From the NCBI GenBank assembly GCA_001724265.1, contig MEDY01000020.1, positions 62,001 through 126,000 of the forward strand: a DNA stretch of 64,000 bases, in the 5' to 3' direction. Positions 24,426-61,700 of this stretch are shown here, one piece after another. Within the stretch, counting starts at the first letter, position 1. Every line of letters begins with the position of its first letter. The notes beneath the pieces are model-generated. The model worked only from the letters and a program-made list of their open reading frames with translations, had not been told where the DNA came from and ran no database searches. The DNA comes from Rhizaria sp. SCN 62-66. Its lineage: Eukaryota. Made by a program: the position numbers and the translations under genes.

Positions 24426-27400
24426 ATGAGGCGCTTTGTGTCCCCGGCCGCGACCACCTCGGTTGCGCGCCGCGCCACAGCCGTTGCCGCCGCCGTCACA
24501 TCTTCCACCGCGGCGCCAGTCGCCCGCGGTGTTGCGCCCATCGTGCTGCCTGTGCCTGTGCTCGCTGACAACGCCTCCTCGTTGCTCAACACTAACGCAG
24601 TCTCTCAGCACATGCAGCAGCTGGCTGCCGCCACGACTGCGCGTAAAAGCGCCACATTTAAGTCATTTGCGCCGATTTCTAGCGTTATGCACGCGCACGC
24701 TGACGATGTGAGCGACTTCAACGGCCTAGGCGCTGTAGTATCTGCCGTTCCTTCATCTGCCACTGCAAGTTTTGCTGTTGATGCTTCAGTCGCTATCTCG
24801 GTGAACTCTGCTGATTTCGCTCCCAGCCGTGGGCCCTCAATGCTGCGCGCTACTTCCCCCGTGCTTGCACCCTCACAAGCTGCATTGTCGCCGCCGACAC
24901 AGCAGCAGACGCATTAGCAGCCGCCATCGCAGTCGCCACAGTTATCTTCTGACCCCGAAGTGGCTGCGCTGCTGCTGCGCGGCGACCACCGCGGCGCGCT
25001 CCCGCTGCTGCAGCGCCGCCTGGCCGCCCACGCGCGCCTTGTTGCCGCCATCGAGGCCGCCCGTGCCGCCGCGTCAGACTCTGTTCTCAGATCACATCTT
25101 CTTAACAACCCTGAGTCAGAGACGTCGGACGCAGCTGCGACTGCAGCCGCGGCGGCTGCGGGCGCGGCGGCGCTGGTGGCGGGTTGCCGCGCCGCGTTTC
25201 CGTGCTGGACTCCGCCCACCGCGGGCCCGCCGCACCTGTTCGCGGGGCACAGCTGCGCCGACAACGCCGACGGCAGCGAGGACACCAACTCATCCGCCGA
25301 CGACGTCAGTGTCGGCTCGAGCTTCAGCGGCGACTACAGCGACACGGTGCGCGGGCGCGCGACGCTGGACGAGGCCGCGCTGCTGGCGTCGCTGCCCGCC
25401 GTGTACTCGGACCTGTCCGCACTCTTCCTCTGCCTCCTTAACACGCCGCCGCCGCGCCCCTCGCCGTCGTCATCTGCTGATAATGCAACACCTGCTTCTG
25501 CCTCTGCCTTGGCCTCGGTGCGGTTTGGCGGCGCGGACACGTCGCTGGCAAGCATGGACGCGTTTTTCGCGCTGCTGGCCGCGGACCCGCTGTCCGCGCT
25601 GCTTACGGCGCCCGCACACTGCGCGCTCGCCCACGGTCACAGCCACGGCTACGGCTACGGCCACGGCCTCGGCCACGGCAACATTCACGGTCTCGCGCAC
25701 AATGTGGGCGGGACGGGCAGCGCTGTGGCCGCCGCGGCCGGCGGCGGCGGGCGCGGCGGGGACTGGCGGCGGCGGCGGGTGCAGGCGCTGCAGGACGCCG
25801 CCGCTGCCAAGGCGGAGCTTCTATCTCGGCTCGCGCTCGCACTGCCGCACCTCGCCGACGATAGCGCGAACGCCAGCAGCACGAGCGGTCGCAGCGGCAG
25901 TGGCGCCAGGGCGGCGAGCGCGCGCGCGGCCGTGGCGGGCGCGGCGGCGATGCGTCCGCTCTTGGCCTCGCACTCGCTCGCGCACGGCCAGAATCAGAGG
26001 CAGAACCTTGGCTCGGGCGGCTCGCTGCACGGCGCATCGTCGCTGTTGAGTGAGACTATGCCCGCAGTCGCCGCGTCGCTGAACGTGCTCACTGTTGCCG
26101 GCGCCGACCTGGCGGCGCTCTCCGCCGCGGCCGCCACGATCGCCGCCCCCAGTGTCGCCGCCTCAAGCGTCGCAGCCAGCGCAGCAACGCCGGTGACGGC
26201 GCGCGAGGGCGGTGTTGCGGCCGCTGCGCTCGAGGCCCCCCGCCTCTTCATTATTGGCGCGCACGCGACCGCGCTTGCGCACGCCGCCGCCAGCGTCGCG
26301 GCTGAGCACGGAGGCTCCGACGCGCCCTCCCCGGCCGCTGCTGCGTCTGCGTCATCAGCCGCGTCCGCAACGGGGGCATCTGCCGCGGCCGAGGCGGAGC
26401 GGGACTGGGTCGACGCGCTGTCGCCCGCCCTCGTCGCCGCCGCCACCGAGGCCGTCATGGTCACGGGCGCCAGCTCCTCCGTTGCCCTCGCCGACGCGGC
26501 GGACGCGGACGACAGCAACGGCAGCTCCAGTCTCAACAGTGCAGTCAGCGGCGGCGTGGCCGGGGCGGACGCTGACTTGCTGTTGGCGCGCGCACGCTTT
26601 TCCCACCAGGACAGCGCTGCGGCCACGCGCTCCGCGCACGATAGCACTGACCCCGGCCAGAGTCTGAGCCAGAGTCGCACTCGCGGCGGCGGCCTCGGTC
26701 TCAGCACCGCGACCGTGCGCGGCGTGTGCGTCGCCGGCGACGCCGCGGCTGCGCGCTGTCTGGACACAGTCGCCCTGCCCGCACTTGCGCTGTCTGCCGC
26801 GCTGTCCTTCTCGCTCGCCGCGGCCCCGGGCGCCGCCGCCGTGCTGTCGGGGGCGCGCGCGGACGAGGCGCGCGCCGCGCTCGTGCGGACGCTGCTGCGC
26901 GCGGCGGCGGCGCGGCTGTGGGCCGCTAGCGTTGGGGTGTTTCACGCCGCCGTCGCCGTGTGCCGCGAGAACACGCTCGCCGTCGCGCCCGCGCTGCCGC
27001 GCCCGCTGCTATTACGCAAACACGCGTTCCCCGCGCCAGCGGTGCACTCGGCCGCGACGGGACCGATTGCCGCAGTCGCCGCGCTATCCGACTCGGGCGC
27101 CGCGGGCCCGCTCGCCGCGACCGCGTCCGCCGCCGCCACAGCGATCCACGAAGTGACGTGCGCGCGCGACTGGGGCGCGGGCTCGCACGTGCCCGCGCTG
27201 ACCGCCACGGTCGCCGCGGCGGCCGCGGCCGTGGAGGCGCTGTCTTCGTTGGCGCTGGCACCCGCGCTGGCCGTCAAGGACCTCGCGCGCACGGCGCCGC
27301 ACGTGCTTGCGCGCGCGCTCGACAACACGGCGCGGCGCGGGAACGGGACGGGCGAGTGCGACGGCGGCAGCGACTGCGAGTCGGCGGCGTTCCCCGCCGT

Positions 27401-30092
27401 GCCAGTGGAGGCGTACGACGTGTTGACGGCGGCCGCGCTGGCTGAGTTCCTCACCGCGCACGTCGGCCGCGGCATCACTGCGGTCAACAACGCGTTCATC
27501 GTGTGGGAGACCGCGCTTGCGGTCACGCCCGCAGTCACGGTCGCGTATCCGACGCAGTTCCACTCGCAAGCACAGCCGCAGCAGCAGCACCAGACGTCGC
27601 AGTCGCACGTGCAGCCGCTCACGGGCGCTGGCCCCGCGACTGGCGCCTCTCCTGCGACCGCCTCCACTGTGCACGTCCCCACCCCGGCGTCCGCGTCCGC
27701 GTCGGCCGCGGTCTCAGCGGCGGCGTCGGCCGTGGCGAAGGTGCTGTCTGTGGCGCCCGTCGCGCCGACTGTGAGCCGCACTGTCCGCGCTGCAGGCTCG
27801 GGCTACAGCTCCGCCTCCGAGTCCGAGGGACCAACGACGCCCGCTGCCGCCGCTGCCGCCGCCGCCGCCGGCGCGCCCGCTGAGGCCGCTGTGGCCGGCG
27901 CGGTTGCGGCCGCGGGTCTGAAGCCCGTCGCAACAGTACACCTGGACCCGCTCGCGCGCGTGGGCGCTGGCGGCGGCGTTGGCGCCGCGGGCGCGTCGTC
28001 CGCGGCGGGCGGCGCGCGCGCGGACCCCGTGCTGTCGGAGTTCCCCGCCACGCCGTCGATTTGTCTGGACGAGCAGAGCGAGGACGTTGTCGCGGAGGAC
28101 TTGGCGCGCGAGGGCGTCACCGCCGCGGTCGCGCGCACGGGCGCGGACACGTTCACGCCGATCCCGCGCTCGCCGCCGCCGCAGCCGATCGCGCCGCAGC
28201 AGCAGCAGCAGCCGCAGAAGCAGGCCGCGCCACAGACGAAGACTCAGTCGCCGCCGCAGCCGCACGCACAGTCGCAGGTGCATCTACCGCAGCATTTGCA
28301 CATGGCGCCTAGCGGACGCACCCCCTTGCAGACGCATGCGCAATCGAACTCGCATTCTAACCCGCACCCGCACCCGCACCCGCACCTGCAGGCCGCCGCG
28401 GCGTCCCCGCGCGCGCGGGGCAAGGGCGCGGTGTCGGTGTCGCTGTCGCCGAAGGCGTGCGTGCTGTCGTGGTCGGAGCCGGCGACGCTGGCGCACGCAC
28501 CGCACCTGGAGACGCTTGTACGCCTGCACGCGGCGACGGCTGCGGCGACCGCGGCTGCCACCACGCTCGGCCCGCACGCCTGGCTTGAGCGCCTTGAGCG
28601 CCAGCAGCGCCAGCAGCAGCAACAACTGACCGAGCAGCAGCAGCAGCAGCATCTGCTCGGAGTCGGCAAAGAGCGTCGCCACGCCGTGCTGCGCCGCCAC
28701 CGCGCCGCGGCGGGCCCGTGCCTGGGCCCCGCCGCCGGCGGCGGCTCGGCTGCACTTTGCTACCAGGTCGAGGTGCTGGCCGAGCGCGCAGTCAAGAAGT
28801 CGCACCGGCACGCCATCACGGCCTCCGCGGCCGAGACCGAGCTCCGCGCGTGCGCGCCGTGGCCGCTGCTTGCCGCGCTTACCGCGCTGCCGTCCACGCT
28901 CGCGCTCGGCTTGCCGTCACAGGCCGCGAGCGCCGCCGGCGCCATCGTCGGCGTCAGCGACCGCGAGAGCGCGCGCGCGGCGACGGCGATGGCGATGGTG
29001 CGCGCCCCGATCCGCGCGGCGTGGCACGCGCTGGGGTTGCTGGCGCCGCCCGCACACAGCGCGCTCGCGCCCGCCCCGGTCGACTCGGCGACGCACCAGC
29101 AGCAGCACCACGACCAGGCGCTGGCGCAGGCGCAGTCGGTCTTCCCGGCGGGCTCGCTGCAGTCGTACCTGGCGAGCTACTTCGCCACGGCTTCCCCGCC
29201 CTCGCTTATCGCGGCCTCGCAGCACTGCATCGAGACGCTGCAGGCCTCGGCGCCCGCGCTGTGCGCGCTGCTGGCGCCGCACCCGCGCTTCGCGCTTGCC
29301 GCCGCGCTCGCGACTGTGCGTGCGGCCACGGCCGCCGCCGCCGCCGCGCGTGCCGCGGGGCTGCCTCTCACGGGCGCGCGCCTCGACGCCGCCGCGGGCG
29401 AGGCGGGCGCGGCCGTCGCCGTTGACGCCGGGCTCGCCGCCGCCATCGCTGCCGAGGCCGAGGCCGCCGCGCGCGCCGCGTGGGCGCAGCCCTTCGTTGT
29501 GCTGCCCGCCGGCGCGGCTGCTGCTGCTGTCGCTGCGGGCGAGAGTGCCAAGGCCGCCGCTGCCGCCGCCGCTGCTGCAGCTGCCGCAGCGCGTGAAGCC
29601 GGGCGGCCCGGCGCGGGCAAACTCGGCCCCCGCGGCGGCGCTGACGCAAGCGCTGGTGCTGGTGACAACAGCGGCGCGACCGGCGGGCCCGTGGTTGTGG
29701 TGACGACGACCAACGCGCCGGGCATCGACGGAACCGTCGTGATCAAGCCGCGCACCACCGGCGGCAGCGACGGCGGCGGGAACGGGCTGACCGCGGCCGC
29801 GATCCTCGACGGCGACGCGAGCGCGCCGCTGCCGCCGCTGCCCGCGCCCGCGCCCGGCACGGCCCCGCTGGCGGCGCTGCACTTCCAGCTCACGCTCGCC
29901 GTGGCCTCGGCCTTCAACGACGCCGGCATGACTCTGGTGCAGCTGGTGCAGCTCGCGGCGCCTCGCCTTAACCTCTCACTGCTGCGCGCGATGCAGCTTG
30001 CGGGCAATGAGACCGCGGCCGTGCAAGCGGCGAGCTCCAGTGCTGGGTCACGTCTTAACATTGCTGGCGCTAGCAGCAGCTCCAGCAGTAGC

Positions 30093-30129
<37 letters not shown>

Positions 30130-33100
30130 GCAGCAGCAGCAGTGACAGTAACAGCAGCAGCACCGCCGCTAGCAGAAGCTTTAGTGCCAGCACTCCTGCG
30201 AGTTACGGCTCCAGCTCGAGCCAGAGCGCGGCATCCAAGGCGACGCCTTTGATTGCGACCACTTCGGTGCACGCGAGCGCGGAGGCGGTTGAGCGCGCCG
30301 AGGCCGAGGCCGCGACGGCCGAGCAGGCACGACAGCAGGCGAAGCAGCGCGCCGCGGCGACGCGGCTGGCCGGCGAGGACGCCTTCCTGACGTCGGGTGC
30401 CGCGGCCGCCGCCGTCGCCGCGGTCACTGGCGGCGACCACGCACCGGACATGGGCGAGCGCGCGAGCGCGGGCAGTCGCTACGCCAGCCCCGAGCGTAGC
30501 GCCGCCGTCAGTCCCAGCGCGAGCGCGCGGCTCGAGAGCGTGCTGACCGCTGACGCCGTTGCCGCTCCGCGCGCGGCAGGCGCTGCTGCTGCGGCTGCTG
30601 CTGCTGGCGCGGGTCGCAGCACGACGGCGCCCCCCGCGGCGCCGGCGACCGGCGCTTTGCAGGGCGGCGAGTCCGGCAACGCGGCCGGCGCTGCCGGACT
30701 GGCGGGCGCCGACGCAGTGGGGCTGTTCGACCTCACGCACTCCGAATCGGGCCGGGCTCGCCGCGAGCGCGCGCGGCGCGGCTGGGTGCGGCTGCTGCCG
30801 CCGCCCGCCGCGCTGGCGCTCACGGCCGAGACCGCGCGCGCGGTGCGGCCCGGTGGGTTGTGGTGTTTCGGGCGCTACTGGCTGCCTACGACGCTGTTGC
30901 TGTCGCCGCCAGTGCCTGCCGCCGCGGCCGCGGGCCCGCCGATGGTCAGCCGGCTGCCGTTCCTGACAGTGGCGTCGCCGCTCGCCGGCGCGAGACTGCG
31001 CTGCACGCGCGCCGCGGCGCTGGGCACGGTGCCCGCCGACGCGCTCATCAGCGGCGCCGCCGGCGCGCTCACCACGGAGCACTACGCGCTGGTGGCCGCG
31101 GCCGACGGGACCGCGCTGAGCAGCGCGCCTAGCAGCGACGCTGCGGCCGCGGGCGGCGTGCGCGCGTGGGTGAGCGAGGCGTCACCGCTGCCGCACGTGA
31201 CGCCCGCGACGGCGCCCGCGCTGACCGACTACCTCACCCGGCTGGACATGATGGCCAACAAGGCGCGGGCGCACTTATCGCGCTCGCTCTGGCTCAAGCT
31301 CACCGCGCTGGGGCTCGCGCACGACCTTCCGCTGCCGGGCCGCGCAGTCTCAGCAACAGCGTCCGCGGCGGGTGCAGCGGGCAACGCGCGCGCGGGCCAA
31401 GGGCCCGCGCGCGAGGGCGGCGGCGTGGGCTCTGCTATGGCTGCGGCCGTGGAGGCGGGTGTTGCGCAGGCCGCTGCGGCGACGCGCAACACCACAAACA
31501 CAACGCTGCTTGCGGGCAAGCCCCATGCGAGCGACGCCGACGCTAGCAGCGCAGACGATTGCCACAGCAATAGCAGCGACAGTAACAACAACGTGAGACG
31601 CAGCAACTACGGCAGCGGGGTTCTGAGCCCGGAGCTTCCCGGCGTGAGCGATGCAGCCGTTGCGGCCGCGGCGGCCGACGCCGTCGCTGCGCAGGGTCGC
31701 GCCGTCAAGGCCTGGCTGGCCTCCGTCGTCGCCGCGCCCACAGTCGCGGCCTCCGCTCCCGTGCCCGCCGCGCAGCCGCGCGAGGAGCCCAAGGGCCGGC
31801 GCGCGGCGCTCAGCGCGGCGGACGCGGCGCAGCATCTGCGGTACCGCCCGCCGAGCTCCGCCACCGCGAACTCCACTGCCACATCGGCTGCGGGGCTGCT
31901 CGCGAGCGCGGCCGCGGCGGTGCCGACGGTGGTTGCGAAGCACGTGGCGGGCCCGGTGCTGGTGTCGGTGTCCAACGCGATCCGCAACACGACGGTGCTG
32001 CTGCTCAACGCGGGCGGCGGCGCGGCGCACGTGAACGGGCACGGGCACCACCACGGCCACAGCCACCACCACGCGCACTACGTCGCGCAGTCGTCGGTGC
32101 TGTCGGCGCACATCGGCGAGACGGTCGCCGCGGTGGCGCCCGCGCTGCTGCCGGTGTACGCATACTGGGCGCGCGAGGTTGCGTTTCACACGCACTGCGT
32201 TGCGAGCTCGGGCGCGTCGCTGCTGCGCGGGCTGCCCTCGGGGCTCGGCTGGCCGCGCGCCGCGTTCCCGCCGCTGCAGCACCTGGGCGACCGGCGGCCC
32301 GGGGTCGCGCTGGCTGACTCATGGGAGGCCTTCGCGCCTTCGCAGGCCAGCGCCGTGCTCAAGAACGCGCACACCAACCTCGCACAGGCCGCGTCCGCGG
32401 CCGGGGACTTGCCCGCCGCGGAACTGCACTCCGCGCTTGCGTGCGCGCTTACCGCGTGGCTGCCCCAGGTCGGCGAAGAGGCCGCGGCGCAGAGGCTGCA
32501 GCAGTAGCGGAAGCCTGCGCCGACGAAGGCGCTGGCCACGGTGGACGTGGAGGCGGCCGCGGATGAGGTCGCGGTCAACAAGGGCGTGCCCCCGGCCCTG
32601 GGCCGCCTCGGCCAGCTGCCCAGCAACAGCCTTGTCTCCAGCTCTTTCCCGGGCGCGGGCTCTGGCTCTGGCTCGAAGAGCGGCGCGATGCGCGCGGACG
32701 CGGTGTTGACGCAGCTGCTCGCGCATTGGGCGCGCGTCCCCACGTACCCGACGTCGCAGCCTGAGGCAAACGCGCTCATCATGAAGGCGTCGCTGCTGGG
32801 CCAGCTGGGCGCGCTCGCGCAGCAACAGCACCAGCTTGAGAGCCGCATCGCCGCGATCCTTCGCGCGCGCGACGGCCGCACGCTGCCGCCGCCCGCGTGC
32901 CTGGGCGCGCAGGCCGCGTTCTACGCTAAGTTTGTACACCCGGGGACCGTGAACAAGACCAAGGGCGGCCGCACCGGCGGCGAGCGCGGGCGTGCGGCGG
33001 CAGACGCGGCTGCGAGCTCTGGCGCCGGTCTCGACGTCGCGGGGCTCGCTGAGGCACTGTGTCGGCGTGGCACTTCGTCGGCGAACGCGGCGGCGCTGCA

Positions 33101-34100
33101 GGCGCGCGCGCGCGCGTCGGCTGAGCGCGCGGTAGCGGCACTGACTGGCGCGCTCTCCGCGCTGCAGGCGGCGTCGGCGCTATGGCCGCCGGGCCGTCTA
33201 CGCGCGCAGCAGGTGCTGCATCTCGAGGTGGACCCGTGCGCGCCGCGGCTGTCGGCGGCCGTGCTGCTCGCTGCTGACTCGGCGCGCAGCCGCGAGCAGG
33301 CGCTGACGCTGTCGGGCAACCTGGCACAGGCTCTGGTCGACGCGCGCTCCCCGCAGGCCGTGCCCTTTATCGACTCGCTCATCGACGCCACGCTGCTGCA
33401 CCGCAACGCCGCGCGCCTCTCGTTCCTGTACGCCGACGCGGCCCGCCAGCGCGCGCGCCTCGCAGCGCGGGGCGGCGGCGGCGATGGCGACGCGGGCGTC
33501 GTGGAGCTGATGATGACGCGGCCCGTGACCGTAGAGCTGGGCCGCACGCCCGCGCTGGCGGAGCTCTTCTGGCGCAAGGCCCTCGCCGCGCAGCTTTGTG
33601 GCACGCCCGTGACTAACGGACCCGACGCGACTCCCGCCACCACGACCGCCGCGGCAGCGACAGCGAGCGCAGTCCCTACCTCGCCTGCGACCGCCAGTGC
33701 CAGTACTACTGCTGCGCCTGTTCCGGAGCCGAAGCCGGACCTGGACACGGCGGAGCGCGCGCTCTTCTCGGCGCTGTGGCATGCCAGCGCCGCGCCCGCC
33801 GCGCGGCCCGGCCGAGGCACGGTCGGCGCCAAGGACGCCGACGCCGACGCCGACGCAGCGGAGGAGGAGGAGGACGCGGACGCGGCGTTCGAGGCGCGCG
33901 GCCCGCTGGCGTTTGCGCGGCTGGCGCCGCACCCGTCGGTGCCGACGCGCGTGTTCAACGCCATCGTGCTGCAGTACGCCGAACTGCTGAGCAGGCGCGG
34001 GGACCTGGCGTCGGCCGCGATGGTCTCCACGCATCTCGTCATGGAGCCGGGGGGTGGCGCGGACCCTGCGTACATCCGCCAGGTTTTGCGCTCGGGCTGA
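24426..34100 (+). CDS. Giant Ala-rich hypothetical protein (3,224 aa) with two in-frame TAG codons (24915, 32505)
   Basis: ORFs 24426..24917, 24960..32507 and 32541..34100 are in one frame, separated only by single TAG codons, with unchanged coding-like composition across the junctions; ends TGA. No family recognised; weak TPR-like helices near the C-terminus. Confidence 0.7.
30072..30161 (+). repeat. Coding (AGC)n poly-Ser tract
   Basis: Imperfect AGC run encoding SSSS...RSSSSDSNSSS. Confidence 0.85.
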
Positions 34101-34531
34101 GAGAGCGTAACGGGTGCTCGTGCTAACTCACCGCGCTCACCAAACACCAATGAACAACATGCGACACATATTTATTTGACGAGGTTAAAGTTTAATAGTT
34201 TCTATAATGATTCGAATACATACAATATTTTAACTTGTTTGGTGTTGGGGTGTCTCGTGGTAATGCTATTATCGTTGTATTGTGACGACAAGTGGATGTA
34301 TGCGACATAATCGTACCTTGCCGTGAGAGTTACCAACACAACTCAAGCTCAGAGCTGTTTACACCAACCTTGTTTTCTGCATTATGTTATGCAACATCCG
34401 ACACGGCTATTGCAGCCGAACTCATGGTTTTACCAGTATTAAATATATACGCTGCCTTAATTATATACTGCCAGTATCTCACTAGCTCTCTATGTGCGTC
34501 TTTTTTTCTTTCATCGTTGCTCTGGACAGAG

Positions 34532-35229
34532 ATGAGTTTGGCCAAGTCTTCCCAAGCGTTCCGCCGCAATACTATCGGCATGGTTGTCTTTATGACTGTT
34601 GCCACCTTCATTGTGTCTGGCCTTTCTAACCAGAAACGCCGCATTGTAGGTTTTCATGTTCATATTCTTGCACTAGGACTCGTTTCTTCTTCTTGCCTCG
34701 ATGCACATAAGCATGCTTCGTATTCGTTCTTTAAACACGGCTGATCATGATGATATCATCGTCCACAACACACACATTCGCAATATCATTTACAATTACT
34801 CACATATTATACGCTTACTGTGCTATTTTCTCTGCAAGACAGAAGGGTGACACAATGCGCGACGCCGACTACCTGGCCGACAACCTCAAGAAGCACGAGG
34901 TCAAGCCCGAGCAGGTTCAGAACGAGATCAAGGTGCGTTCACAGCATTATCTGTAGATTTTCAACGCACTATTACCATGCCATTATATTATTGTGATGTG
35001 GTCGGCGTTGCGTGCTTTCTGGTCTGCAATCATATGCTCACAACTTCCGCCGTTCTGCGTTCCTTCTTTCTTCACTCTTTCACGATGCACGATCCATCCA
35101 TTTGCGCGACAGGCCATGCTCGAAGAGTACGACGGTAAGGACTATGACATGGTGCGCATTGCCCGTCCGCCGACGGAGAGCGAGGCCGCGCTGCCGTCTC
35201 GCCCAGAGTTCAAGGGAAAGCAACAGTGA
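34532..35229 (+). CDS. COX16: Cytochrome c oxidase assembly factor COX16-like (106 aa); 3 exons (34532-34645, 34843-34932, 35113-35229)
   Basis: N-terminal transmembrane segment (IGMVVFMTVATFIVSGL), then a charged region and C-terminal DYDMVRIARP, resembling the COX16 'D..E.vR.pRP' motif; phase-0 introns GTAGGT...CAG and GTGCGT...CAG; ends TGA. Confidence 0.7.
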
Positions 35230-44810: not shown

Positions 44811-44859
<49 letters not shown>

Positions 44860-49474: not shown

Positions 49475-51214
49475 ATGTCCAAGTACCTGACGTGCCAGGA
49501 CGACGTGAGCGAGGTGGGCGCGCTGGTGTGCCTGCACTGCCACTCGTGGGAAGTGCCCACTTGCTCTGACCACGGGCCTATGTCCTGGCCCACCAGCGAG
49601 CCCTCGGACCCGTCCTGCATGTGCACGCCGCACCCGCCGGCGTCCGCGCGCCGCTGGGGTCCGCAACCAGCGCCGGACGCGTGGCGCGCGCTCCCGTCTG
49701 CGCCCGCGGTACGCGTGGGCGTGCGCTGCCACTCGTGCGCGCTCGAAGTCTTCGAGTCTTAGCCCTGGTGCTGGCGCTGCGTCGACTGCGACGCGCCCTC
49801 GCCCGGAGCCGTCCGCTTCCTCCGCTTCCGCGCCGCCGCGGGGGTTGCCTTCCGCGCCGCCGCGGCGCCCGGGGACGGCGCGGGGTCCTTTCCCATCTGC
49901 CCGCTGCAGTCGGACACGTTAGGCGACGCAGGCGGCGGCGGCCGGCCGAGTGCGCGGCCGCAGCCGGTGGCATTCGCGGGCTACCTCGCGCGCTGCCAGC
50001 TCTGCGCCGCCGCCGCGCCGGTGCTCCGCGCCGAGAGCAGCGCGCACTACGCCGCCGGCGACGCCGCCGCCTTGGCAGTCGCAACCGCCGCCGCCAGGGC
50101 AGAAGCAGCCGCCGCAAAGCGCGAGGGCAATGGGACCGCGGCTGATGGGACTACGACGGAGGCGAATGCGGCTGTGAGTGAGGCGCAGCTGCAGCAACAG
50201 CCTGCTCTTGAGCCGGAGCCGGGGCTGGCGAGTTCCGCAGTGGAGCTGTCCCGCGGGGTCGAGGGCGCGCTGCGCGTGTGCCGGCCCTGCGACGCGTCCG
50301 TGGCCGTGCGCCACTTCCGCGAAAACAACAGTCACCTCTTCACAAAGCGCGGCAACAATAACAACAACACCGCGAACGGCAACGCAGTGACTGGGCAGAA
50401 TGCCGATTCAGCAACAGCCGCGGGAGCAGCGGCCGAGGACGAGGAGGATCTGGCGGCGTACGACGACGCGGCCGTGGTGGCGGCGCTGCGCAGCGCGTGG
50501 GCCCGCAAGCTCGAGCACCACGGCGCCCAGTGCGCGCTGCTGGGCGGCGACGCGGCCGTGGTCGTGGAGCCCATCTCGACCGTGGCTGCGGCGGCCGAGA
50601 ACCTGTGCCGCTACACCACGGGTCCTGCGCGGCGGCCGGCGCCGGCTGTGCGGCTGCAGCAGCGCTGCGAGCACCCTGATGGCCACGTTGGCGACGCCGA
50701 CGGCAGCAACAACGACAGCGACGCCGCGGACCGCGACTGCGGGGGCGTCGCCGTGCGCAGCGCGCTGGGTCAGACGGTCGCCGTCGCGGGCGCGGGCCCC
50801 GCCGACAGCGAGCGCTGGGGCTCCTGCGACGCGCTGCCGTGGCTCGCGCCGCTGGCCGCGGATGAGCAGGAGCGCGAGGCCCTGCGTGCCGCCGCCGCGT
50901 AGATTGCGCGGGCGCGCGGTGCTCAGGTCCACGCGGCGGCGGCGACGACTGGGGCGACGCTGGGGGCGACGCTTGGGCGCGCGGTGGACTCGGTGGCGCT
51001 GCGCACCGAGCTCGAGAGCGCTCTTGGCAGCGGCTGCAGCGACAGCATTGGCGGCAGAGCTCTCGAGACTGTGGGCGGATCTGCTGTGCACACACAGCCG
51101 ACTCCCGCGCAGAGTCTGGACCAGAGACCGGGGCAGGGGCGCGCGGCACGGGAGCGCGCCGTGGCTGCCGAGTGGGCGCGGCGCGAGACTAGGATGCCCG
51201 GACTCGGTCGTTGA
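49475..51214 (+). CDS. Cys-rich hypothetical protein (579 aa) with two in-frame TAG codons (49760, 50900)
   Basis: ORFs 49475..49762, 49967..50902 and 50984..51214 share one frame with only TAG between them; CxxC-type pairs on both sides of the first TAG (CLHC, CHSC | CWRCVDC, CQLC, CRPC); ends TGA. Confidence 0.6.
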
Positions 51215-52105
51215 GCGCGAGAGCGGGTTGTGCGCGCCTTTTTTGCTCTGGTGCGTGTTACATGTACCGTGTGGCTTGCGCCTCTCGAAAGCTCTTGTTG
51301 TGGGGGCTTTGACTTTGGGCAATGATTGATTTTTATTGATTAGATTTTAATGATTACTGAATAATGAACTTAAAGAACTAAAATTACGCTGCCGTGAAAT
51401 CGCGAGATATTGACAAACTTGTTGAGTGTGCATTACAAACGAAATGGAGGAACGTCATCCTCAGAGTAACACGAACTGCAAACCTCAATCGAACTGCGTG
51501 TTTGGAGTTCGATGATTATAATAATGAGATTTGCCAGAATGAGACTTTCTTATCTAACATACGAGTGAATTTTGTACACAAAAGCATTTGTTTATCGACG
51601 TTGCGAGCGGGTATTGACTTCTATAATGTCACGTCATACGTATTACAAGCTTGATTATTGTATAAATACATCGCTTTTTGATATTTCAGAGTTAAATAAA
51701 CATGTTTTTCTTTACACCCAACCATTTTCCAGACACATATCCAAAGTGTTAAGTGATTAGTGGCCAAATAATGCGGTATTGACACAAAACATCGTTTACT
51801 TGCCAAGGGCCACAAATGAAATCTGGGGGGTACCAAGGGTGAGTGACAACGCCTCATTTTGAACGGAGATATGCTCGAGCGCTTAATCGTAAATCAGTGA
51901 TTAGCGCCCCTGTTATACATATGCCGCTTACTTATAATGATCATACTTCTGTGGTTCTTGATTACATTTTGATTAAACCTTACGTGTACGTCTGTTTATC
52001 TCCCCCTCTCACCAGGCTGCCCGCTTGGTCTCCTTTTCATAGCCCGACTTTCTCCTTCTCACCCGCCCCGTTTCCGCGCCCATCACCCGAGCCGCTGGGT
52101 TAACG

Positions 52106-52627
52106 ATGGGCAACACCCCCTCGGCGGACTCGCCCGACGCCGCCGTCGGTTCTGCGGCGACGTCCGCGCAGCCCGCGGGCCAGTTCCGCGGTGTCATCGC
52201 GACCACTTTTTCGGCACCCGCGCGCCGCCCTCGTTCGGGGTCTCGCTCCGACGACAGCGACGGCGCTGCGTCTGCGGACAAGGATGGCGACTATGTCGAC
52301 GATGACGACGACGGTGCGCTTGTGTTTGCCGCCGTCACCTCAACACCCGCCTCGCCCGCGCCCGCCACAGCCTCTGCCTCTGCCACCGCCTCCTCCGCCG
52401 CCGCTGCCTCACCAACCCCCGCGTCCCCCGTGCCCGTCGTCTCGGCCGCGGCCGGCGCCGGGCCCGCGGACGCGGACACGGATGACGGCGACGGCGCGCT
52501 GCTGGCGGACACGCGCGTGGAGGTGCTGCTGCGCGCGGGCCAGGCCGAGGCTGCCGCGGCGCTGCTGAGGGAGCGTCAGCAGCGCAGGGCCGCGCGCCTC
52601 GCCCGCAAGCTCAAGCGCCAACAGAAT

Positions 52628-52658
<31 letters not shown>

Positions 52659-55600
52659 CGCAAGACGAGCAATCAACCGACCAGTCGCCGCCACATGAAG
52701 CCGCGGCTTCTGAGGGCAATCAGCTGCCCGAGGCCCAGGCGGCGCCTCTGTCTGAGGCGGCGCCTCTGTCTGAGGCGGCGCCAGAGTTTGCATCCCATTC
52801 CGCCGCTCCTGTCTCTGCGCCCGAGCCCGACGCAGCGTCTGTTGCCGCCGCCGCCGCTGCCGCAGCCCCCGTCCCCGAGCAGTTGCCCGCCCTTGTCCCG
52901 GCCCCGGCTCCCGACCCGGCCCCTGCGGCGGCTCCGTGTCTGCGGTCGCTGCTGCCTGTTCTGCGCTCGCGCGGCGTGACCAACCTCGGTCAGACGTGCT
53001 ACCTGGCGGCCGCGCTGCACGTCGCCGCGCTCATCCCGGGGCTGCCCCGCGCCGCCGCCGACGCCGCGCGCGCTCTCGCGCCCGCACGCGTCGCAGACGC
53101 CTTCACACCCCTCCCCGCTCCGGTCGCAGCTGCACCAGCAACTGCGGCGGCGGCCTCTGCGTCCGGCACCAAGACTGCAGGGACTGCGCACAAGGCTGCG
53201 CCCACGACAGCGGCTGCGTCTGCTGCAGTGCCGGCGACAGTGTCAGCGACAGCGTCAGCGTCAGCGTCAGCACCGCGCGCCGTGCAGCGGGTCGTGCGTG
53301 CGCCCTTCTCTCCGACGGAGGCCGCGCCGCTGCCGCCGCCGCCCGCGCGCGCGCCCAAGACGCTGCCGCGCGTGGTGGCGCTGCCGCCGCCGCTGTCGCT
53401 CTTCACGCCGCAGCAGGCCCCCGCGGCGCTGCTGGCCGCCGCACTGCGCCGCCTCGCCGCCGCCGCGCACGCTGTCCGCACCGTGCGCGCCGTTGCGGGC
53501 AAGGCCGATAAAGCGGGCCAGGCCGATAAAGCTGACAAGAGCGGGAACGACAGTGCCGTCAAGAGCAAGAACAGTCATGGACGCACGCGTAGTGCTGCTG
53601 CGGCGGCTGAGCGCAGTGCGCGTGCAAGCGCGCGTGCGGAGACGATGCGGCTCTACTTTGACACGCGGCTCGTCTTCGGTGGGCGGTTTGACGTCGAACC
53701 TGCCGCCAACGGCGACGATTGCGCCAGCAGCAGTCACAGCGACAACGACAGCTCTAGCGACAGCAGCCTGAGCGACACCACCGACGACGAGGACTTCGAC
53801 CGTGGCGTCGCGACCACTTCTGTCGTCGCGCGCACCAACAGCAACGCTGCGAGCGCTAACAATAGCAACAACAACAGCAGCAGCAGTCCCGTGGCGCATG
53901 CGACCGCTCCTGAGGCGGCGTCCGCTGCCGCCGACGCGAGTAACAACGCTTCTGCTGCATCCTCGCCTTCCCCTGCGCCCGCGCCCGCGCATGCGCCTGT
54001 GTCCGCGCCCGCGTCTGCACCAGCTGCGGTGCCGGCGCGGCCGCGTCGCTTCCGCCCGCTGTCGGCCGCGACGGTGGGCTCGCTGAAGCGCGCGCTAGAC
54101 ACGGTGCCGGGTCTGTCGTCGTTCCGCGGGACGGACGCGCCGCACGACGCGCTCGAGTACCTGCTCACGCTGCTCTCGGCCGTGCACTACCACGCCGTCG
54201 TCGCCGCTGCCGTCCGCACCCGCGCCGCGCGCAAACGCGCCCTGCGCCGCCTGAGCAGCAGCAACAGCAGTCGCAGCAGTGCCGACGCCGCGGCGCAGTC
54301 TCCTGCCGCGGCCGCCGCGAGCGCGGCGCTGCCCGCGGTGAGCGTGCTACCCGCGCAGCTGGACCCGTTGTCGCTGACGCGCACGCTCACGGGCCGCGTG
54401 ACGGTTCCCGCGGCGGCGTGGGCGCGCGCAGTCGACGCCGCCGAGGCCTCTGCGCGCGCCTGGGCCGGGGCCCTCGAGCGCGCGCGCGCGCTGCTGGCCG
54501 ACACGCTGCCGCGCCTCGCGCGCGCGCAACCCGCTGCCGCGGTCGCCGCCGCCGCGCTCGCAGCGGGCGCCGCGCATGACATCAACATCAACGCCGGCGG
54601 CGCGCAGTCTGCGGACTCGCCGGAGCAGGGCTGGTACACTGTGCTGCCGCGCCTTACGGCCGCGCTCGACCGTGCAGAGGCATCCACAGCGGCCGCAACC
54701 GCGACTGCGCCTGCGGGTGCTGGCGCCGCTGCGGCGGGCGACGCTGCGGCGGCCACGGCGGCGGCGGCAGCGGCGCTTGCGTCGGGCGTGGAGGCCGCCT
54801 CCCTGGTCTCCGCGCTGCCCGCGCCTGTGCTCTGGACCTGGCTCTTTGTCCCTCCCCACGGCAGCGCGAATGGCGCCGCAAACACCGGCGACGCGGACAG
54901 TGCTGTGGCCGGCAGCGCGGCGGCGGAGGGCGCCGCACAGCCAAGCTTTGCGGAGGCGACCGCGGGCGTGCTCGCCGCGGCGTGGCGCCGGCACTGCTCC
55001 GCGCGCGGCGCGTCCGACGTAGGCCGCGACCTGAGCTCGCTGCTGCTCGAGGTCGCCATAACGCCCGCCTCGGGCGAGGCCGCGCTCGTGGCCACCGTCG
55101 GCGTCTTCACAAACGTGCCCCTGCTCACGGTCACCGCCGACGCGCAGAGCATGGGCAGCAGCCCTGGCGCCAGCGCACCTTTCCCTGCGCTTTCCCTTGC
55201 GAGCTCTGTGGCAGCCCCGTCGGCCGCTGCTGCGAGCGAAGCCAAGAGCAAGGACGAAAGCAAAGCTGCTGCCGCGAACGCGCCTGCAAACGCGACTGCA
55301 ACGACGGACCTGACGGACACGGACGACGACGACTCGACCTCAGCTGTCGCCGCCGTGGCCGCCGCTGTGGCCGCCAACCCCGCGCTCGCGGGCCGCCGCC
55401 GCCCGCGCAACAGCAGCGACGACACTGACGCCTGCTCCGACGCGGACAGCGACGCTGAGGCCGAGGCCGAGGCCGAGGCTGAGTCCGCGGAGGCGGAAGC
55501 TGACGAGGCGGGCGCGCGCTGCGGCCGCCAAGCGGGCGCTGCGGTCGAGGGCATGGGCCCCTGCACGTGCCCGAAGCCCGACGCGGCGGCCTCCGCGCCC

Positions 55601-58459
55601 GCCGCCGCGTCCGACAGCGCAGTCGCTGCCGCTGCCTCACCGCGTGTGGACTCGCGGTCGCCGTCGCCGGCCTCCGCTGCCGCTGCCGCTGCCCCGGTGC
55701 TGTCCGCGAGCGACGCGGCGGCGATCGCGGCTGTGACCGCGCTGGCTGCGCGCGCCGCGGCCGCAGTGTCCCGGCTCGCGCGGCGCACGCGCGCGCACGC
55801 CGCGCACCTGCGACAGCTCGGCGCCGTGGCCGCCGCGGCGGCGGGCGCGGCGGGCGCGCAGGCCGAGGCTGAGGCCGAGAGCGCGCGCACCCTGCAGACG
55901 GCGCGCCGCGCACACGTGCGCTGGGTGGAGCGCCGTGCTCGTCGGGCCCGCGCCGCGCGGCTGGGGCTTGAGGACTCGGACGCGGAGAACGGCGCCGCCG
56001 ACTGCTACTCGGATACCGAGGACGAACAAGTTGCTGCTGCGCAGCAGGCTGAGCCGCAGCAGGATGTTGGCAAGGCAGATATTGTGACCGAAATTAGCGC
56101 TGAGGTAGTACCTGAGGCCGATGCAAGTGCTGATGTTGATGCCGAAGAGGGCTTTAGTACTCCTATTGCTGTCGCAGCCGAGCCTGTCGCTAAGCTTATC
56201 GAGCCCTCTGTAGCCTCCGCTGTCGAGTCTGCTGCTTCCGATGCTGCTAGCACAGACTCTGCTGCGGCTGTGGCGGCCGCCTCCGTCTCTGCTGCAGAGT
56301 CCACTGCGATTGCAGATCTTGTTGCTGTAACCGAGTCTGCTGTGGCTGTGTGCCCGCAGCATGGCGCATTCTCGCCTCGCTCCATGCGCCCGCGCTCGCG
56401 CGCCAACACGCAGTCCCTCTCTCCGCTGCCGGTGTCCCCCGCTCCTGCTCCTGTGTCCGCCCCTGTTGCCCCTGTGCCTGTACCTGCGCCTGTGTTAAGC
56501 GCGAGCGCTGGCCCCGCAGTGAGCGCAGTGAGCGCCGTGAGCGCTGGCGGCGCGGTGTCGGTGCTCGCGTCGCTGGCGCTGGCGTTCCCATCGCGCCCGC
56601 CCGCGGCGTCGGCGCTGCCGCTGCCGCCGCCGCCCTGCGCGCTCGACGGCGCACTCGCGGCGCGCGCGGCGGCCGTGGCGGCGGCGACGGCGGCGCTGGG
56701 GGAGGTCATGGCCCGCGAGCGCGCCGAGGTCGCCATGGCCGTGCGCGTCGCGCGCGCGCTGCATCGCGACGAGGCCGCCGCGCGCCGCAAGCAGGAGGAG
56801 AAGGAACGCGACGCAGCGCAAGCTGCCGCCGACGCCAAGGCCGCCGCCGATGCCAAGACCGCAGCGGTCGCCGCGGCCGCTGCTGCTGCTGAGGCCGATG
56901 CTGAAGTCAAGACCAAGGCCAATGCTGAGTCTGAGGCCAAGACGGAGGCAGAACCCGAGACCGGGTCGAAGACTGAGGTTAATGCTGACGCGCCTGCTGA
57001 TGCCATTTCTGACGCTGTGACTCATGCTGCTGATGCTAAGGCTGTGCCTGAGCCTGACGTGGCTGCGTCCACTACTGTCGAGCCGAATACGGTTCTCTCT
57101 GCTGCTGCGGACGCTGAGCCCGCTGCCGCCCAGTCCGAGGCCGACGCCGAGGCTGCGGCCGCTGCAGAGGCTGTGGCTGAGGCGAAGGCTGATGCCGAAG
57201 CCAAGGCCAAGGCGGAAGCCGACGCAGAGCACCGGCGGCAGCGCCGCCGCTCCGCGCTGGCCTCGTTGCCGCCGGTGCCGTATCCGTTCCCCTCCTCCGT
57301 GGCCGCGCCGTGGATCCCTCTGCCGGGCCTCGCGCCCGGCGACCCCGTGCCCGCCTCCGCGCTTCCCGTCTCGACTCCCGCATGCGTGCCTGCTACTGCC
57401 GCAGCTGCGGCTGAGAGCGTCGTGGCGGCGGCCGTGCTGCCCGCCGCGCTGCAGCCGCCCGCGCCGCTGCTGCCACATGTCGCCGCGTTCCTGCCCGCGC
57501 GCCCGCTGCGGTTGTGCCGCACCGTCGTGAAGCCGCCCGCCGTAGCGTTGCTGCGGCTCGACCGCACCGGCGACGCCGCGCAGGCCTCCGCGCGCGCCGC
57601 CGCCGCCGCGCTCGCCGCCGCCACGGGCGAAGACGACGGCTTCGGCGACGACGACGCCGGCGATGACGGTCAGAACGACGGCAACCTTGTCGGTCAGGGC
57701 ACCAGCGTTGCGACGGAGGGCGCGGGCTCAGCTGCAGCGGCATCTGCCGCCGCTGCTGCTGCGGCCTCCGCCGCTGCCGCCGCCGCGTCCGGCTCCGGCA
57801 GCCGGTCCATGTGGTCCTGGCTGCCATGGGCTCGCTCTGACGCCGACGCCGCCGCTGCCGCGGCAGCTGCCGCCGCTGCCAGCGCGAACAGCAGCAGCAA
57901 CAGCAGCAGTCTGAGCGGGAGCAGCAGCAGTTCGTCGCTATTCGGCTTCGGTGGGCAGTCCAAGGCGACGGCGCCCGTGTCTCTGCCGCTGTCTGCGCCG
58001 CTGTTCGGCCAGCACCGCCTTACGCGCGCGCTCGCCGCCGCGCTCCGCACCGCCGCCACCACCGCCGCCGCCACCGCCGCTAGCAGTGGCGCCTCTGCGT
58101 CCGACGCCACCGCTGATGTCGACGCGCGCGCTGGCGCGCTGCAGCGCCTGTGCGACGACGCCGACGCTTGGGAGCTCTCTTGCGTCGACCCCGGTGCGTT
58201 AGCACTTAGCGCCGGCGCGATCAGCGCTGCGGGCGGCGCGGGCGCGGCGTACTCGCTGCGCGGGCTCGTGACGCACTCCGGCGCGTCCCGCGCTGGAGGG
58301 CACTACGCAGCCGTGCAGGCGGCGCGCGGCGACGGCGTGTGGTACGTGCTCGACGACGCCGCCGTCACGCCGCTGCTGCTCAACGCGCCCGCGGTCTCCT
58401 CGCGCGACGCGTACGTCGCAGTCTATGTCCGCGAACAGACGGCTGGCGCGCGGCCCTGA
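52106..58459 (+). CDS. Ubiquitin-specific protease (peptidase C19) with a highly fragmented catalytic domain (2,117 aa)
   Basis: Cys box GVTNLGQTCYLAAALH, HDALEYLLTLLSAVH, His box YSLRGLVTHSG...GGHYAA...WYVLDDAAV, terminal AYVAVYVRE; N-terminal MGNTPS fits an N-myristoylation motif; ends TGA. Confidence 0.85.
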
Positions 58460-58774
58460 GCCAACATAAGTTATGCGTGCTGAATGACATGATCTTGGTC
58501 GTTGTACGTGTTGTTGGTGGTCTATGCTAATGTGATAAACATGTTCAATTGTTATTGAGATTACAAATAATAACTCTAGAATAAATTATTAAGGCTTTTT
58601 TCCAAATTCTATGTTATCTATTTCAGTCACAGCATCTGTGCTGAATTATTAAACTAAAATCTACTCAAAATGTCATCATGCGAACACAAAAATATTATCA
58701 AAAATACAACAGCATTCATCAAGACAGTTTCCTTGTCACTGCACACCCTTCTATCAAAATCGATACAGTTAACG

Positions 58775-61700
58775 TTACGCCCACTCCCAGTCGCGAATAT
58801 TGCCCTCATCAGGGAGTGCACCCTCGATCTCACCCTGGGTTTGACCCTCCTCCTGGTGCTGCGGCTGCTGCTGAGGCTGGCCCTGCTGCGCATCGTTGCG
58901 CATCCACTTCGTCACTGGCGCCGCGGCAGCAGCCTTTGCCACAATGGCGGCCTTGGCCTCGGCCTTAAGAGCTGCCCGGGCCTCGGCCGTGGCGCGGGCC
59001 TCATCCGCAGTGCTGGCCTGCACCTGCTGCGCCTGCGCCCGAAGCTGCGCCTGCGCCCGGGCCTGCGCCGCGGCATCTGTCTGCGCCTGGGCCTGCGCAC
59101 GCGCCGTCGCGAAGGCCGCGGCCTGCGCCAGCACCTGCGCCTGCACCTTGGCGGCGGCGTCGGCCTTGGCCTTGGCCTCGGCGTTCTCGGCCGTGAGCGC
59201 GTCGATCTGCGCCTGCTGCTGCACCAGCTGCTGCTGCGCCTGCTGGAGCTGATGCTGCTGCAGCGCAGCGTGAAACACTTGCTGCGACGCCGCGTCTACG
59301 ACCGGCGGCATGCCGTAGCCGTAACCGGTGCCGGCAAAGCCTCCCGGCGCGACGCCGTAGGCCATGTGCTGCCCGGCGTAGGGCGCGTAGCCATACGGCA
59401 CGCCAGCGCCCGCCGCGGCCATGCCCGCCGCTGGCATGTGCGGGTGCCCGGCGGCGCCGTAGCCCGGGGCGGCGCCGTACGCGGCGGGCGCGGGCGCGGC
59501 GCCGTAGCCGGGCATGGGGAAGCCGTAGGCACCAGCGCCCGCGTGGGGTGCCGGGTACCCGTGAGGGTACTGTCCGTGCGCGTGCCCGTGTGTGTGCGCG
59601 TACGCGGCCTCGTGGCCCACGGCGGCAGCAGCGGCAGCGGGCTCACCATCGGCGTCTTTAACAGCAGCGGCGGCGGCACGAGTCGCGCGCAGCGCCTGTG
59701 CCTGTGCCTGTGCCTGCGCAGCCGCGGCGCCCTTAGCACCTGCCGCCACGGCGGGAGCGCCTCCAGCTGGGACGGGAGCGACCGAGTCGTTGCTGACCCA
59801 GCCCATAACGGGGCGGTCGCGGGCGGGTGGCGCCGCCTTGGCCAGCGGCAGCGGCGCCACAGGGTGCAGCGCCTTGGGCGGCTGGTACGGGCCCTTGAAG
59901 GTGTTAGCATTGCGAGCAGGACCAACGTTGCCGCGGTAATTGTTTCCTCCGGTGTTGTAGACCTTAGCAGGCGGCGCGCGCTGTTGATGTTGATGGTGCT
60001 GTTGCCGCTGCTGTTGCCGCTGCTAATGCTGTTGATGCTGATGCTGCACGCGGCCGCCGTCGGGGCTGTGGTCACCACGGATACGGTCGTCCGCGCGGGC
60101 GAACTTATTGCGGGCCCCTGTGAAGTTGCTGTTGTTGTTGTTGTTATCGCCATTGTTCTGGAGCTCCGCCGCCTCCTCGGCGGCCTTCTCGCGCGCCCGG
60201 CGCAGCGCGCGCTCACCCGCGGCCATGCACCGCGCCGCAAGCGCTGCCGCCGACACAGAGTGCTGGCGTCGCGCCGCAAGCGCCTCCGCGCTCTCAGCCT
60301 CGGCCGCCGGCTCCTGCTCCTGCTCCTGCTGCTGCTGCAGTTCATGGTCGTTTCCGTCCTGCATCGCAAGCACGGGCGCGGGCGCGGGCGCGGGGTCCCA
60401 GGCCGCGGCGTAGGTGAGCGAGCCGAGCATTGCGGCGAGCGCAACGGCAGCCTGCTCCTCGTCGTTGGCATTGACCGTGACGACCGCGGCGAAGCCCTCG
60501 CTGGCGACGGGCGCCTCGAACTCGTCCTGCTGGCGGTGCACGACGCCGCCGACGCGCGCGCGCGCCTCTGCGGGCGACTCGTCCGCCTGCGCGCCCAGCC
60601 TCAGGTGGCCCACGCGCGCCAGGACGCGGTCGACCGAGTCCTTGGCCGGCAGCAGCAGGTGCACGCACAGCCGCAGCGGCAGCGGGACAGGCGCCACGCC
60701 GAACGCCGCGGGCGCCAGCGCCGGCGACGGCAGCTGCGTCGGCATGTTCGCGGCCGCGGCGGCGGCGTCGGCAACGGCCGCGGCCGCGGCGATGGCGGCA
60801 ACAGCGGCGCCGTCGTTGTCGCGCGCAGCATTGTTATTAAGATTGTTGTGATCGTTCACGACAACACCGTCCTCCTCAGCTTCTTCTTCGTCGACGAAAG
60901 TGAATGCAACGTGACCGGGCTTAAACGCCACAGCAGGGGCAGCAGCCGGAGCGGCGCGTGCGGCAGGAGCGGCGGCCGCCTGTTGCTCGCGCCGCCCCTG
61001 CCTGTCCTGCTCTAGCTGCTGTCGCAGATTCTGGAGCCGCTCCGCCGCGTCCACCGCCTCCACGGCCACGACGGCGTCAATGGCGGCGGCGGCGGCGTTG
61101 AGCTCCGCCTCGGCCTTGGTAAGCGCATTGACGGCGCGCGCGTCGGGCGCCTGCGGCGCGGCGGCCACGTTGAGCCAGTGCGCGCGCTGCTGCTTGGTGA
61201 GGTTCGTGCGGTCCACGACGAGGCGCGGCACGCCCAGCGCGTCAAGCGCGGCGTCCCACGCTCTCACGCCCGCGGCCACGCGGTCGCGCTCCGCGTCGCG
61301 CTGGGCCTTGACCTGCTCGCGAGGCTTGTTGTTGGCGTTGTTGTTACCGGCCAACGCTTGCGTCTCGAGCTGGTTCAGAGGCAGCGGCAACAGCGCGGGC
61401 AGCAGCGCCGCCAGCGCGGGCCGCGAGCCCGACACAAGCGCGTCGGACAGCCCCTGGCGCGCGGCGGCGCGGGCCGCAGCGGAGCTAGACAGCAGCGTCG
61501 CCGTCGCCGCGTCTATCGCGGCAGACGCGGCGGTCACGACAGGAGGCTGCTGCAGCTGTTGCTGTTGCTGCTGCACATGGAGAGGGAGAAAGGCCTCAGC
61601 AGGGCCCGCGGCAGCCTCGTCAGCGGCGGCCCGCGCGGCGGCCGCGGCGACAGTCGTGGCGTAGGCTGCACTCAGCGCGGCGGCGGAAGCGACGTTGTCA

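Follow-up and report, generated by a model that had tools for sequence, protein, structure and literature searches.

In a 64,000-nucleotide stretch of eukaryotic DNA (the window, taken from contig MEDY01000020.1 of assembly GCA_001724265.1, deposited as Rhizaria sp. SCN 62-66), we find it likely that UAG encodes an amino acid and that UAA and UGA serve as the terminators. The window is a compact, intron-poor, GC-rich eukaryotic contig of bioreactor and wastewater metagenomes. Five in-frame TAGs in three of its genes are real DNA and lie inside coding sequence, two of them inside a conserved protein. UAG is probably decoded as glutamine, as the sequence around these codons suggests. An initial annotation, made from the letters of the window, had proposed the same use of the three codons, and homology, open frames, codon bias and gene ends support it. 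On this reading, the organism adds a lineage to those known for a rare variant of the nuclear code.

Five in-frame TAGs lie within three long open frames

The initial annotation placed in-frame TAGs at 24915, 32505, 49760 and 50900 on the forward strand and at 60025-60023 on the reverse strand, and the sequence bears out all five positions. Two are in gene A (24426-34100, + strand), an Ala-rich open reading frame (ORF) of 3224 codons that has no Pfam domain and ends at TGA. The TAG at 24915-24917 is codon 164 of this gene, between TQQQTH and QPPSQSPQ. The TAG at 32505-32507 is codon 2694, between AAAQRLQQ and RKP. Gene B (49475-51214, + strand) encodes a Cys-rich protein of 579 codons, also ends at TGA and likewise holds two TAGs. 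The first, at 49760-49762, is codon 96 and lies between two CxxC pairs, preceded by RCHSCALEVFES and followed by PWCWRCVDC. The second, at 50900-50902, is codon 476, between RAAAA and IARARG. Gene C (58775-62017, - strand) has 1080 codons, an N-terminal P-loop motif and a TAA end. Its single TAG, at 60023-60025, is codon 665 and lies in a Q/H-rich tract. With TAG read as sense, the frames are open over 24336-34100 (3254 codons), 49439-51214 (591 codons) and 58775-62140 (1121 codons).

The frames had been said to continue for about 100 to 2,500 codons after each TAG, and we measured 103-2529 codons. The distances to the next in-frame stop are 2529 codons after TAG 24915, 530 after TAG 32505 (to the TGA of gene A), 379 after TAG 49760, 103 after TAG 50900 and 415 after TAG 60025 (to the TAA of gene C). 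After 17 true gene ends, the same distance is 1-69 codons. All five TAGs exceed all 17 true stops, which has a rank probability of 1/26334.

We further scored the frames with a codon log-likelihood trained on the domain-bearing genes of the window. Past 32505 and 60025, the same frame scores best and stays positive for hundreds of codons. Across 49760 the signal is clear and more modest. The proportion of G or C at third codon positions (GC3) also carries on in frame past these three TAGs. The coding signal fades about 70 nt past 50900. Near 24915, in the low-GC3 5' end of gene A, it is weak. TAG 24915 is the weakest of the five. Upstream of it 193 codons are free of stops, against 5 and 9 stops in the other two frames, and the first in-frame ATG after it comes 212 codons on. 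For genes A and C, the support for the TAGs comes from open frame and codon bias; homology adds to it in gene B. None of the three genes matches a Pfam family at E ≤ 0.01, and at E ≤ 10 they give insignificant zinc-ribbon and P-loop matches only. In a word-index search, no protein of 1789-5695 aa matched the 805 C-terminal residues of gene A.

Homologues of gene B extend across its TAGs

We compared gene B, with TAG read as Q, to 1.84 billion representative proteins using phmmer. Five matches were returned. Three are fragments of gene B itself, stored as residues 1-95, 165-475 and 504-579 and cut exactly at both TAGs. The other two are relatives, both metagenomic: P0127 (482 aa, E 1.9e-28) and P0128 (503 aa, E 1.5e-20). 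The identity of gene B to its homologues is 33-38%.

A BLASTP match over query residues 6-194 (E 9e-29) is gapless across TAG 49760. In a three-way alignment, invariant columns stand on both sides of this TAG, C85 and C88 before it and P97, W98, C102, C105 and P108 after it. The TAG column itself holds S in P0127 and F in both P0128 and P0129. The initial annotation had held that none of the TAGs could be aligned to a conserved residue. Since homologues span TAG 49760 without a gap, this TAG can be aligned; what stands of the claim is that its column is variable (S/F) and holds no conserved residue.

The last 20 residues of gene B, ERAVAAEWARRETRMPGLGR followed by TGA, are identical to the last 20 of P0127 at 13 of 20 positions (E 5e-07), and the two C-termini end at the same position. 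The matched C-terminus lies 77-103 residues downstream of TAG 50900. Therefore, the second TAG precedes the true C-terminus of gene B. The 379 codons that separate TAGs 49760 and 50900 contain no in-frame ATG, nor do the 477 codons that follow 49760. The conserved middle of gene B thus has no start of its own and needs TAG 49760 to be read through. Judged by these alignments, both TAGs of gene B are inside conserved coding sequence.

The gene B family is uncharacterised, conserved and Cys-rich. It is marked by several CxxC pairs, the motif RKLEH and, at the C-terminus, the motif RRETRMPGL. Pfam has no entry for it, and its known proteins are all metagenomic (P0127, P0128, P0129). A profile search with the gene B alignment (A1) returned gene B's own fragment only, among the candidates listed, and a protein atlas search with P0127 gave no usable match.

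Genes of the window end at UAA and UGA

Our count of gene ends reproduces that of the initial annotation: 5 TAA, 12 TGA and 0 TAG among 17, with one ambiguous case (ORF 4739-5848). TAG ends are missing from this small sample of 17 genes despite a strong preference for codons that end in G or C (GC3 of about 0.87). Within the 16,449 codons of 16 coding segments, we found no internal TAA or TGA, and an in-frame UAG with conserved sequence on both sides was found in gene B. The earlier claim that no gene has an internal TAA or TGA therefore holds for the coding codons, and it does not hold for AT-rich introns, inside which in-frame stops occur.

The base following the codon also separates the five TAGs from the gene ends. 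In order, the TAGs are followed by C, C, C, A and C, and two of them precede CAG. The 17 true stops are followed by A in 7 cases, G in 7, T in 2 and C in 1 (hypergeometric p of about 0.003, worked by hand). The five TAGs are in this respect unlike the organism's own terminators.

Two further TAGs are ambiguous. One (5828-5830, + strand) is in ORF 4739-5848, six codons before its TGA, where GC-rich DNA drops to AT-rich DNA. The GC-rich block at 4950-5780 has no frame with a clear coding signal on either strand, and its longest ORF is rich in Arg, Pro and Thr repeats. This ORF may be the sole gene of the window that ends at TAG. The other (40152-40154, - strand) would be a sixth coding TAG. It lies six codons after the first ATG of a Thr/Ala-rich, surface-like gene (35766-40172), between MSTSQP and FVSAM. 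A second ATG five codons past it is a possible start, and TAG 40152 was therefore left out of the count. It marks either a short upstream ORF or a sixth coding TAG.

The five TAGs are real DNA and do not resemble introns

We compared the window with contigs of other runs in Logan over window positions 31500-51499, which include three of the five TAGs. Run X2 is another sample of the same study as the probable source of the window. Run X3 is filed under another study and looks like the X2 data set; the two are possibly one data set filed twice. The X2/X3 contigs over 32006-36094 and 49633-51399 have 0 differences from the window and cover TAGs 32505, 49760 and 50900. At these three TAGs, no variant letter was reported in the runs compared. 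Gene calls in public assemblies (JGI, ENA and Logan) include a fragment that ends at TAG 49760 on 4 contigs and one that ends at TAG 50900 on 7+1 contigs. Over 20 kb, the runs compared show 8 variant positions and thus nearly match the window, which indicates that a single strain was sampled. The polyA RNA contigs of run X4 include parts of genes A and B.

Introns in the window are few and AT-rich. They measure about 100-170 nt, start at GTACGT, GTACGC, GTAGGT or GTGCGT donors and end at acceptors that follow a pyrimidine tract. The five TAGs, unlike these introns, sit in DNA of 60-85% GC without a pyrimidine-tract acceptor.

Three in-frame stops of the window are intronic. One is a TAG at 21243-21241 (- strand) in intron 1 (21262-21098) of the kinesin gene. 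We ruled it out as a sixth coding TAG because the frame into the next exon is kept only by splicing the GA|GTACGT donor to the AAAG|CAC acceptor. The kinesin gene contains three or more AT-rich introns, which begin at GTACGY donors. A TGA at 41988-41990 (+ strand) is in an intron of the MRP-S23-like gene (41448-43535) that happens to stay in frame, and the two exons of this gene resemble one ORF broken by TGA. A further in-frame TAG is in the second intron of a small gene at 34532-35229.

Sequence context favors glutamine

The Gln-rich contexts that the initial annotation quoted for three TAGs are correct: TAG follows QHQHQQH in gene C, and in gene A it stands between TQQQTH and QPPSQSPQ and between AAAQRLQQ and RKP. 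At least three Q occur within 7 residues on either side of three of the five TAGs. Such surroundings are found for 4.6% of positions overall, for 32% of those that hold Q and for 9.8% of those that hold H, the next highest. No Q stands within 7 residues of either TAG of gene B.

In gene C, the DNA reads TAG CAG CGG CAA followed by CAG CAG CGG CAA. These are copies of a tandem 12-nt unit, and they differ only in the first base, as TAG or CAG. The Gln-type codons comprise 557 CAG, 75 CAA and 5 TAG, so that UAG makes up about 0.8% of them, and CAG is by far the largest codon pool one transition away from TAG. These data suggest that UAG is probably decoded as Gln. A code in which UAG alone is reassigned, to Gln, is listed as NCBI table 15.

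Proposed decoding and alternative explanations

We propose that UAG does not terminate translation in this organism and would be decoded as an amino acid, most likely Gln, leaving UAA and UGA as the sole terminators. Decoding would be carried out by a cognate tRNA with the anticodon CUA, which would read UAG and not UAA, and eRF1 would no longer recognize UAG efficiently. The in-frame UAGs may have arisen from CAG by C-to-T transitions after the reassignment. The rarity of UAG among Gln-type codons fits such an origin.

Several observations weigh against this proposal. The five TAGs are in three genes, and none is in the six genes with Pfam domains above cut-off: those for dihydrouridine synthase (DUS), a prolyl-tRNA synthetase-like protein (ProRS), kinesin, GPN-loop GTPase 1 (GPN1), a TRAPP subunit and a UCH-type ubiquitin hydrolase. 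No TAG is aligned to a conserved glutamine, and the sole alignable column, at TAG 49760, is S or F. The X4 RNA contigs listed span none of the TAGs. Within the 64-kb window, a tRNA scan found 0 tRNA genes, Rfam gave 0 matches, and eRF1 is not among the genes. In Iotanema spirale, by the portion of its description drawn on here (PMC5304391), UAG accounts for about 8% of Gln codons, and the share here is tenfold lower. TAG 5828 may be the true terminator of ORF 4739-5848. The bases that follow the TAGs are also those expected of leaky stops, as discussed below. Finally, about 70% of random single-base nonsense changes in this codon usage would give TAG, and these would arise at CAG. Under random nonsense mutation, five TAGs out of five have a p of about 0.16. 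The absence of internal TAA and TGA is therefore a weak argument, and neither the TAG-only pattern nor the Q-rich context separates reassignment from decay. What does separate the two is the lack of any frameshift or other stop in 4883 codons, the intact codon bias, the conserved residues and C-terminus behind the two gene B TAGs, and the absence of TAG from 17 gene ends.

With these points in mind, we weighed five other explanations. UAG could be a sense codon for a residue other than Gln, for example Leu, Ser, Glu, Tyr, Lys or Trp. Nuclear codes with UAG as Leu, Ser or Glu are reported, as far as the source covers them here (PMC11687900), and both the S/F column and the lack of nearby Q at the gene B TAGs would suit such a code. 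We nevertheless consider it rather unlikely, as three of five TAGs are in Q-rich surroundings of a kind that 32% of Q positions have and that no other residue has at more than 9.8% of its positions, the gene C repeat differs by TAG versus CAG only, and CAG, with 557 codons, is the largest pool one transition from TAG. It is very unlikely that the organism uses the standard code and that the TAGs are leaky stops, read through by a near-cognate tRNA to give short and long products, with TAG possibly terminating elsewhere. C follows four of the five TAGs and two precede CAG; UAG-C and UAG-CAR are readthrough-prone contexts, and C after a stop is the leakiest termination context. UAG is also rare in frame (5 in 16,449 codons), and ORF 4739-5848 may end at TAG. 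However, genes A and B hold two TAGs each, and near-cognate readthrough of a few per cent would leave almost no full-length product. The conserved C-terminal motif of gene B is behind both of its TAGs and needs both to be decoded. The stretches that depend on decoding run from 103 to more than 2500 codons with full coding signal, and no gene end among the 17 is TAG. An ambiguous stop/sense code, of the Condylostoma or Blastocrithidia type, would use TAG as an end as well; we found 0 clear TAG ends among 17 and one ambiguous, which with 17 genes is a weak indication.

A shade less likely than leaky stops are fixed CAG-to-TAG nonsense mutations, under the standard code, in decaying or dispensable genes of one clonal strain. 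Such mutations would be TAG in about 70% of cases and would fall at CAG, hence in Q-rich tracts. The genes that hold the five TAGs are all fast-evolving, of low complexity or poorly conserved, and the near identity of the runs compared (8 variant positions in 20 kb) indicates that a single strain was sampled. This explanation, however, requires that 3 of about 17 genes are dead and that two of them were hit twice, yet genes A, B and C show no frameshift, TAA or TGA in their 4883 codons and retain their codon bias. At 33-38% identity to its homologues, gene B still has the invariant Cys, Pro and Trp columns and the C-terminal motif, polyA RNA contigs hold parts of genes A and B, and TAG again ends none of the 17 genes. 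Removal of the TAGs from the RNA under the standard code, through splicing of very short GC-rich introns that keep the frame or through U-to-C editing, is highly improbable. Introns with in-frame stops do exist in this genome, and a GTACGC 51 nt upstream of TAG 49760 allows a 54-nt in-frame segment to be drawn to the TAG's own AG. Splicing out this segment would remove the invariant C85 and C88, and the homologues are gapless there, which excludes an intron at TAG 49760. The other four TAGs have no pair of donor and pyrimidine-tract acceptor nearby and are surrounded by DNA of 60-85% GC, and the RNA run shows no variant letter at three TAGs, where its coverage is not shown. The chance that the TAGs are assembly or sequencing errors is negligible. 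The X2/X3 contigs, possibly of one data set, cover three of them with 0 differences, and fragments ending exactly at the gene B TAGs occur on 4 and 7+1 contigs from JGI, ENA and Logan.

Gene content and distribution of the window

The window consists of GC-rich blocks (65-78% GC) separated by short stretches at about 50% GC. The confident genes have a GC3 of 0.80-0.91. Pfam matches above cut-off identify the DUS gene (1955-4462, + strand), the class II ProRS-like gene (6131-10843, + strand), the kinesin motor (19753-20850, - strand), GPN1 (22909-24012, - strand), the UCH-type ubiquitin hydrolase at the end of an ORF (51977-58459, + strand) and the TRAPP subunit (62528-63217, + strand). Pfam also identifies an EF-hand protein (261-977, + strand) and a BSD-domain protein (46189-49326, - strand). 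The ProRS-like protein (6275-10843, + strand) is 1522 residues long. Very large insertions, Ala-rich and acidic, break up its class II core; positions 1-177 of the Pfam core are scattered across residues 328-996.

The initial annotation listed COX16 and mitoribosomal genes. COX16 was not recovered by Pfam on three single exons of the small gene at 34532-35229. The gene at 41448-43535 (+ strand) matches MRP-S23 weakly (E 0.0053, below the curated cut-off). This MRP-S23-like gene suggests that the organism has translating mitochondria.

Words of the window were found in 6 studies of bioreactor, wastewater and activated-sludge metagenomes. Their share was 85-99% in 3 DNA runs and 36% in one polyA metatranscriptome (run X4). 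Runs X4 and X5, of a later study, have an 11-base insertion behind 49202, between the gene at 46189-49326 and gene B. The insertion, a strain difference, is missing from the DNA runs X2 and X3.

GPN1 places the organism among metagenome proteins

We used GPN1 to place the organism. In the public collection, the GPN1 of the window is present on 4 contigs, the longest of 97 kb. Among the matches listed, its nearest relative has 66% identity, and the labelled matches belong to fish, plants, Mucoromycota, other fungi and Balamuthia, with identities of about 47-63%. We built a tree of 35 rows, comprising the window and 34 proteins chosen from 120 listed (16 named and 18 from metagenomes, EukProt or MMETSP). 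The window falls into a six-row clade of metagenome proteins with support of 100/99. The named fungi, animals, plants and Balamuthia all fall outside this clade, and the tree has no row labelled as a fornicate, rhizarian or ciliate. This one-gene tree suggests that the origin of the code is likely to be independent of the known UAG-only cases.

A metagenome scan with GPN1 and its 10-kb flanks returned 77 loci, of which the best had 63% full-length identity; it found no close relative, and it also missed the window's own contig. Six AT-rich GPN1 loci (L023, L025, L040, L041, L047 and L050) carry in-frame stops where Gln is conserved, as in the GQIEVF motif. Such stops are as expected of organisms that read both UAA and UAG (UAR) as Gln, such as ciliates, and they are unrelated to the organism of the window.

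Comparison with known nuclear codes

The statements on other codes made here follow the portions of two published accounts that we drew on. In these, reassignment of UAG alone to Gln is described for Iotanema spirale, for Protocruzia tuzeti and for two phyllopharyngean ciliate lineages (PMC5304391, PMC11687900). Iotanema has 204 in-frame UAGs in 126 genes, its genes end with 104 UAA and 15 UGA, and Gln was shown at hyperconserved positions (22/28) (PMC5304391). UAG is read as Leu in the rhizarian exLh and some ciliates and as Ser in Scotinosphaera, and the terminators of exLh are only UAA (56) and UGA (15) (PMC5304391, PMC11687900). UAR is read as Gln in hexamitin diplomonads, oxymonads, ulvophytes, many ciliates and Amoeboaphelidium protococcarum, where the change from stop to Gln probably came about through derivatives of tRNA-Gln (PMC5304391, PMC11687900).

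Iotanema, a member of the Fornicata, resembles the organism of the window in that, as its description has it, UAG alone is reassigned, UAA and UGA are used as ends and UAG is never a bona fide terminator. The two differ in how Gln was assigned, from conserved positions there and from sequence context here. The main terminator is UAA in Iotanema, whereas it is UGA here, and the organism of the window is GC-rich and has the MRP-S23-like gene, a weak match. Protocruzia tuzeti and the two phyllopharyngean lineages have the same code variant as that proposed here, according to the source consulted (PMC11687900).

In other respects the ciliates are unlike the organism of the window. The window is part of a multi-gene contig of at least 64 kb, with coding DNA of 65-77% GC and introns of about 100-170 nt, whereas ciliate macronuclear DNA is AT-rich and phyllopharyngean chromosomes are gene-sized. 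The GPN1 of the window also groups with metagenome proteins.

The codes of exLh and Scotinosphaera, as far as their published accounts were drawn on, share with the code proposed here that UAG is uncoupled from UAA in a non-ciliate nuclear genome. They differ in the amino acid, since the Q-rich context and the TAG/CAG repeat favor Gln here; with five sites, Leu or Ser is possible. With the UAR codes as described in those accounts, our organism shares the reassignment of a stop codon to Gln. UAA is a sense codon there, whereas in the window TAA closes 5 of 17 genes and is absent from the interior of genes over 16,449 codons.

Among the papers listed, our literature search found no report of an activated-sludge eukaryote with this UAG code. 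On balance, we lean slightly towards an independent and previously unreported origin of a code in which only UAG is read as Gln, in an uncultured, mitochondria-bearing, GC-rich lineage that recurs in wastewater bioreactors, at an early, low-usage stage, with UAG so far confined to weakly constrained positions.

Nuclear codes that split UAG from UAA are very rare. The sources drawn on here name Iotanema, a rhizarian, Scotinosphaera and a few ciliate lineages. Standard gene callers cut the genes of this organism at TAG, as with gene B, which is stored as three fragments in public protein collections. Eukaryotic bins from wastewater metagenomes therefore need code-aware annotation. If our reading is correct, a further case in an unrelated, GC-rich lineage would be an independent data point on how UAG is captured alone. 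It would also be a test of the idea that a tRNA whose anticodon is CUA and a change in eRF1 suffice. In addition, the organism would put a low-usage stage of reassignment on view and serve as a natural model for the uncoupling of UAG from UAA.

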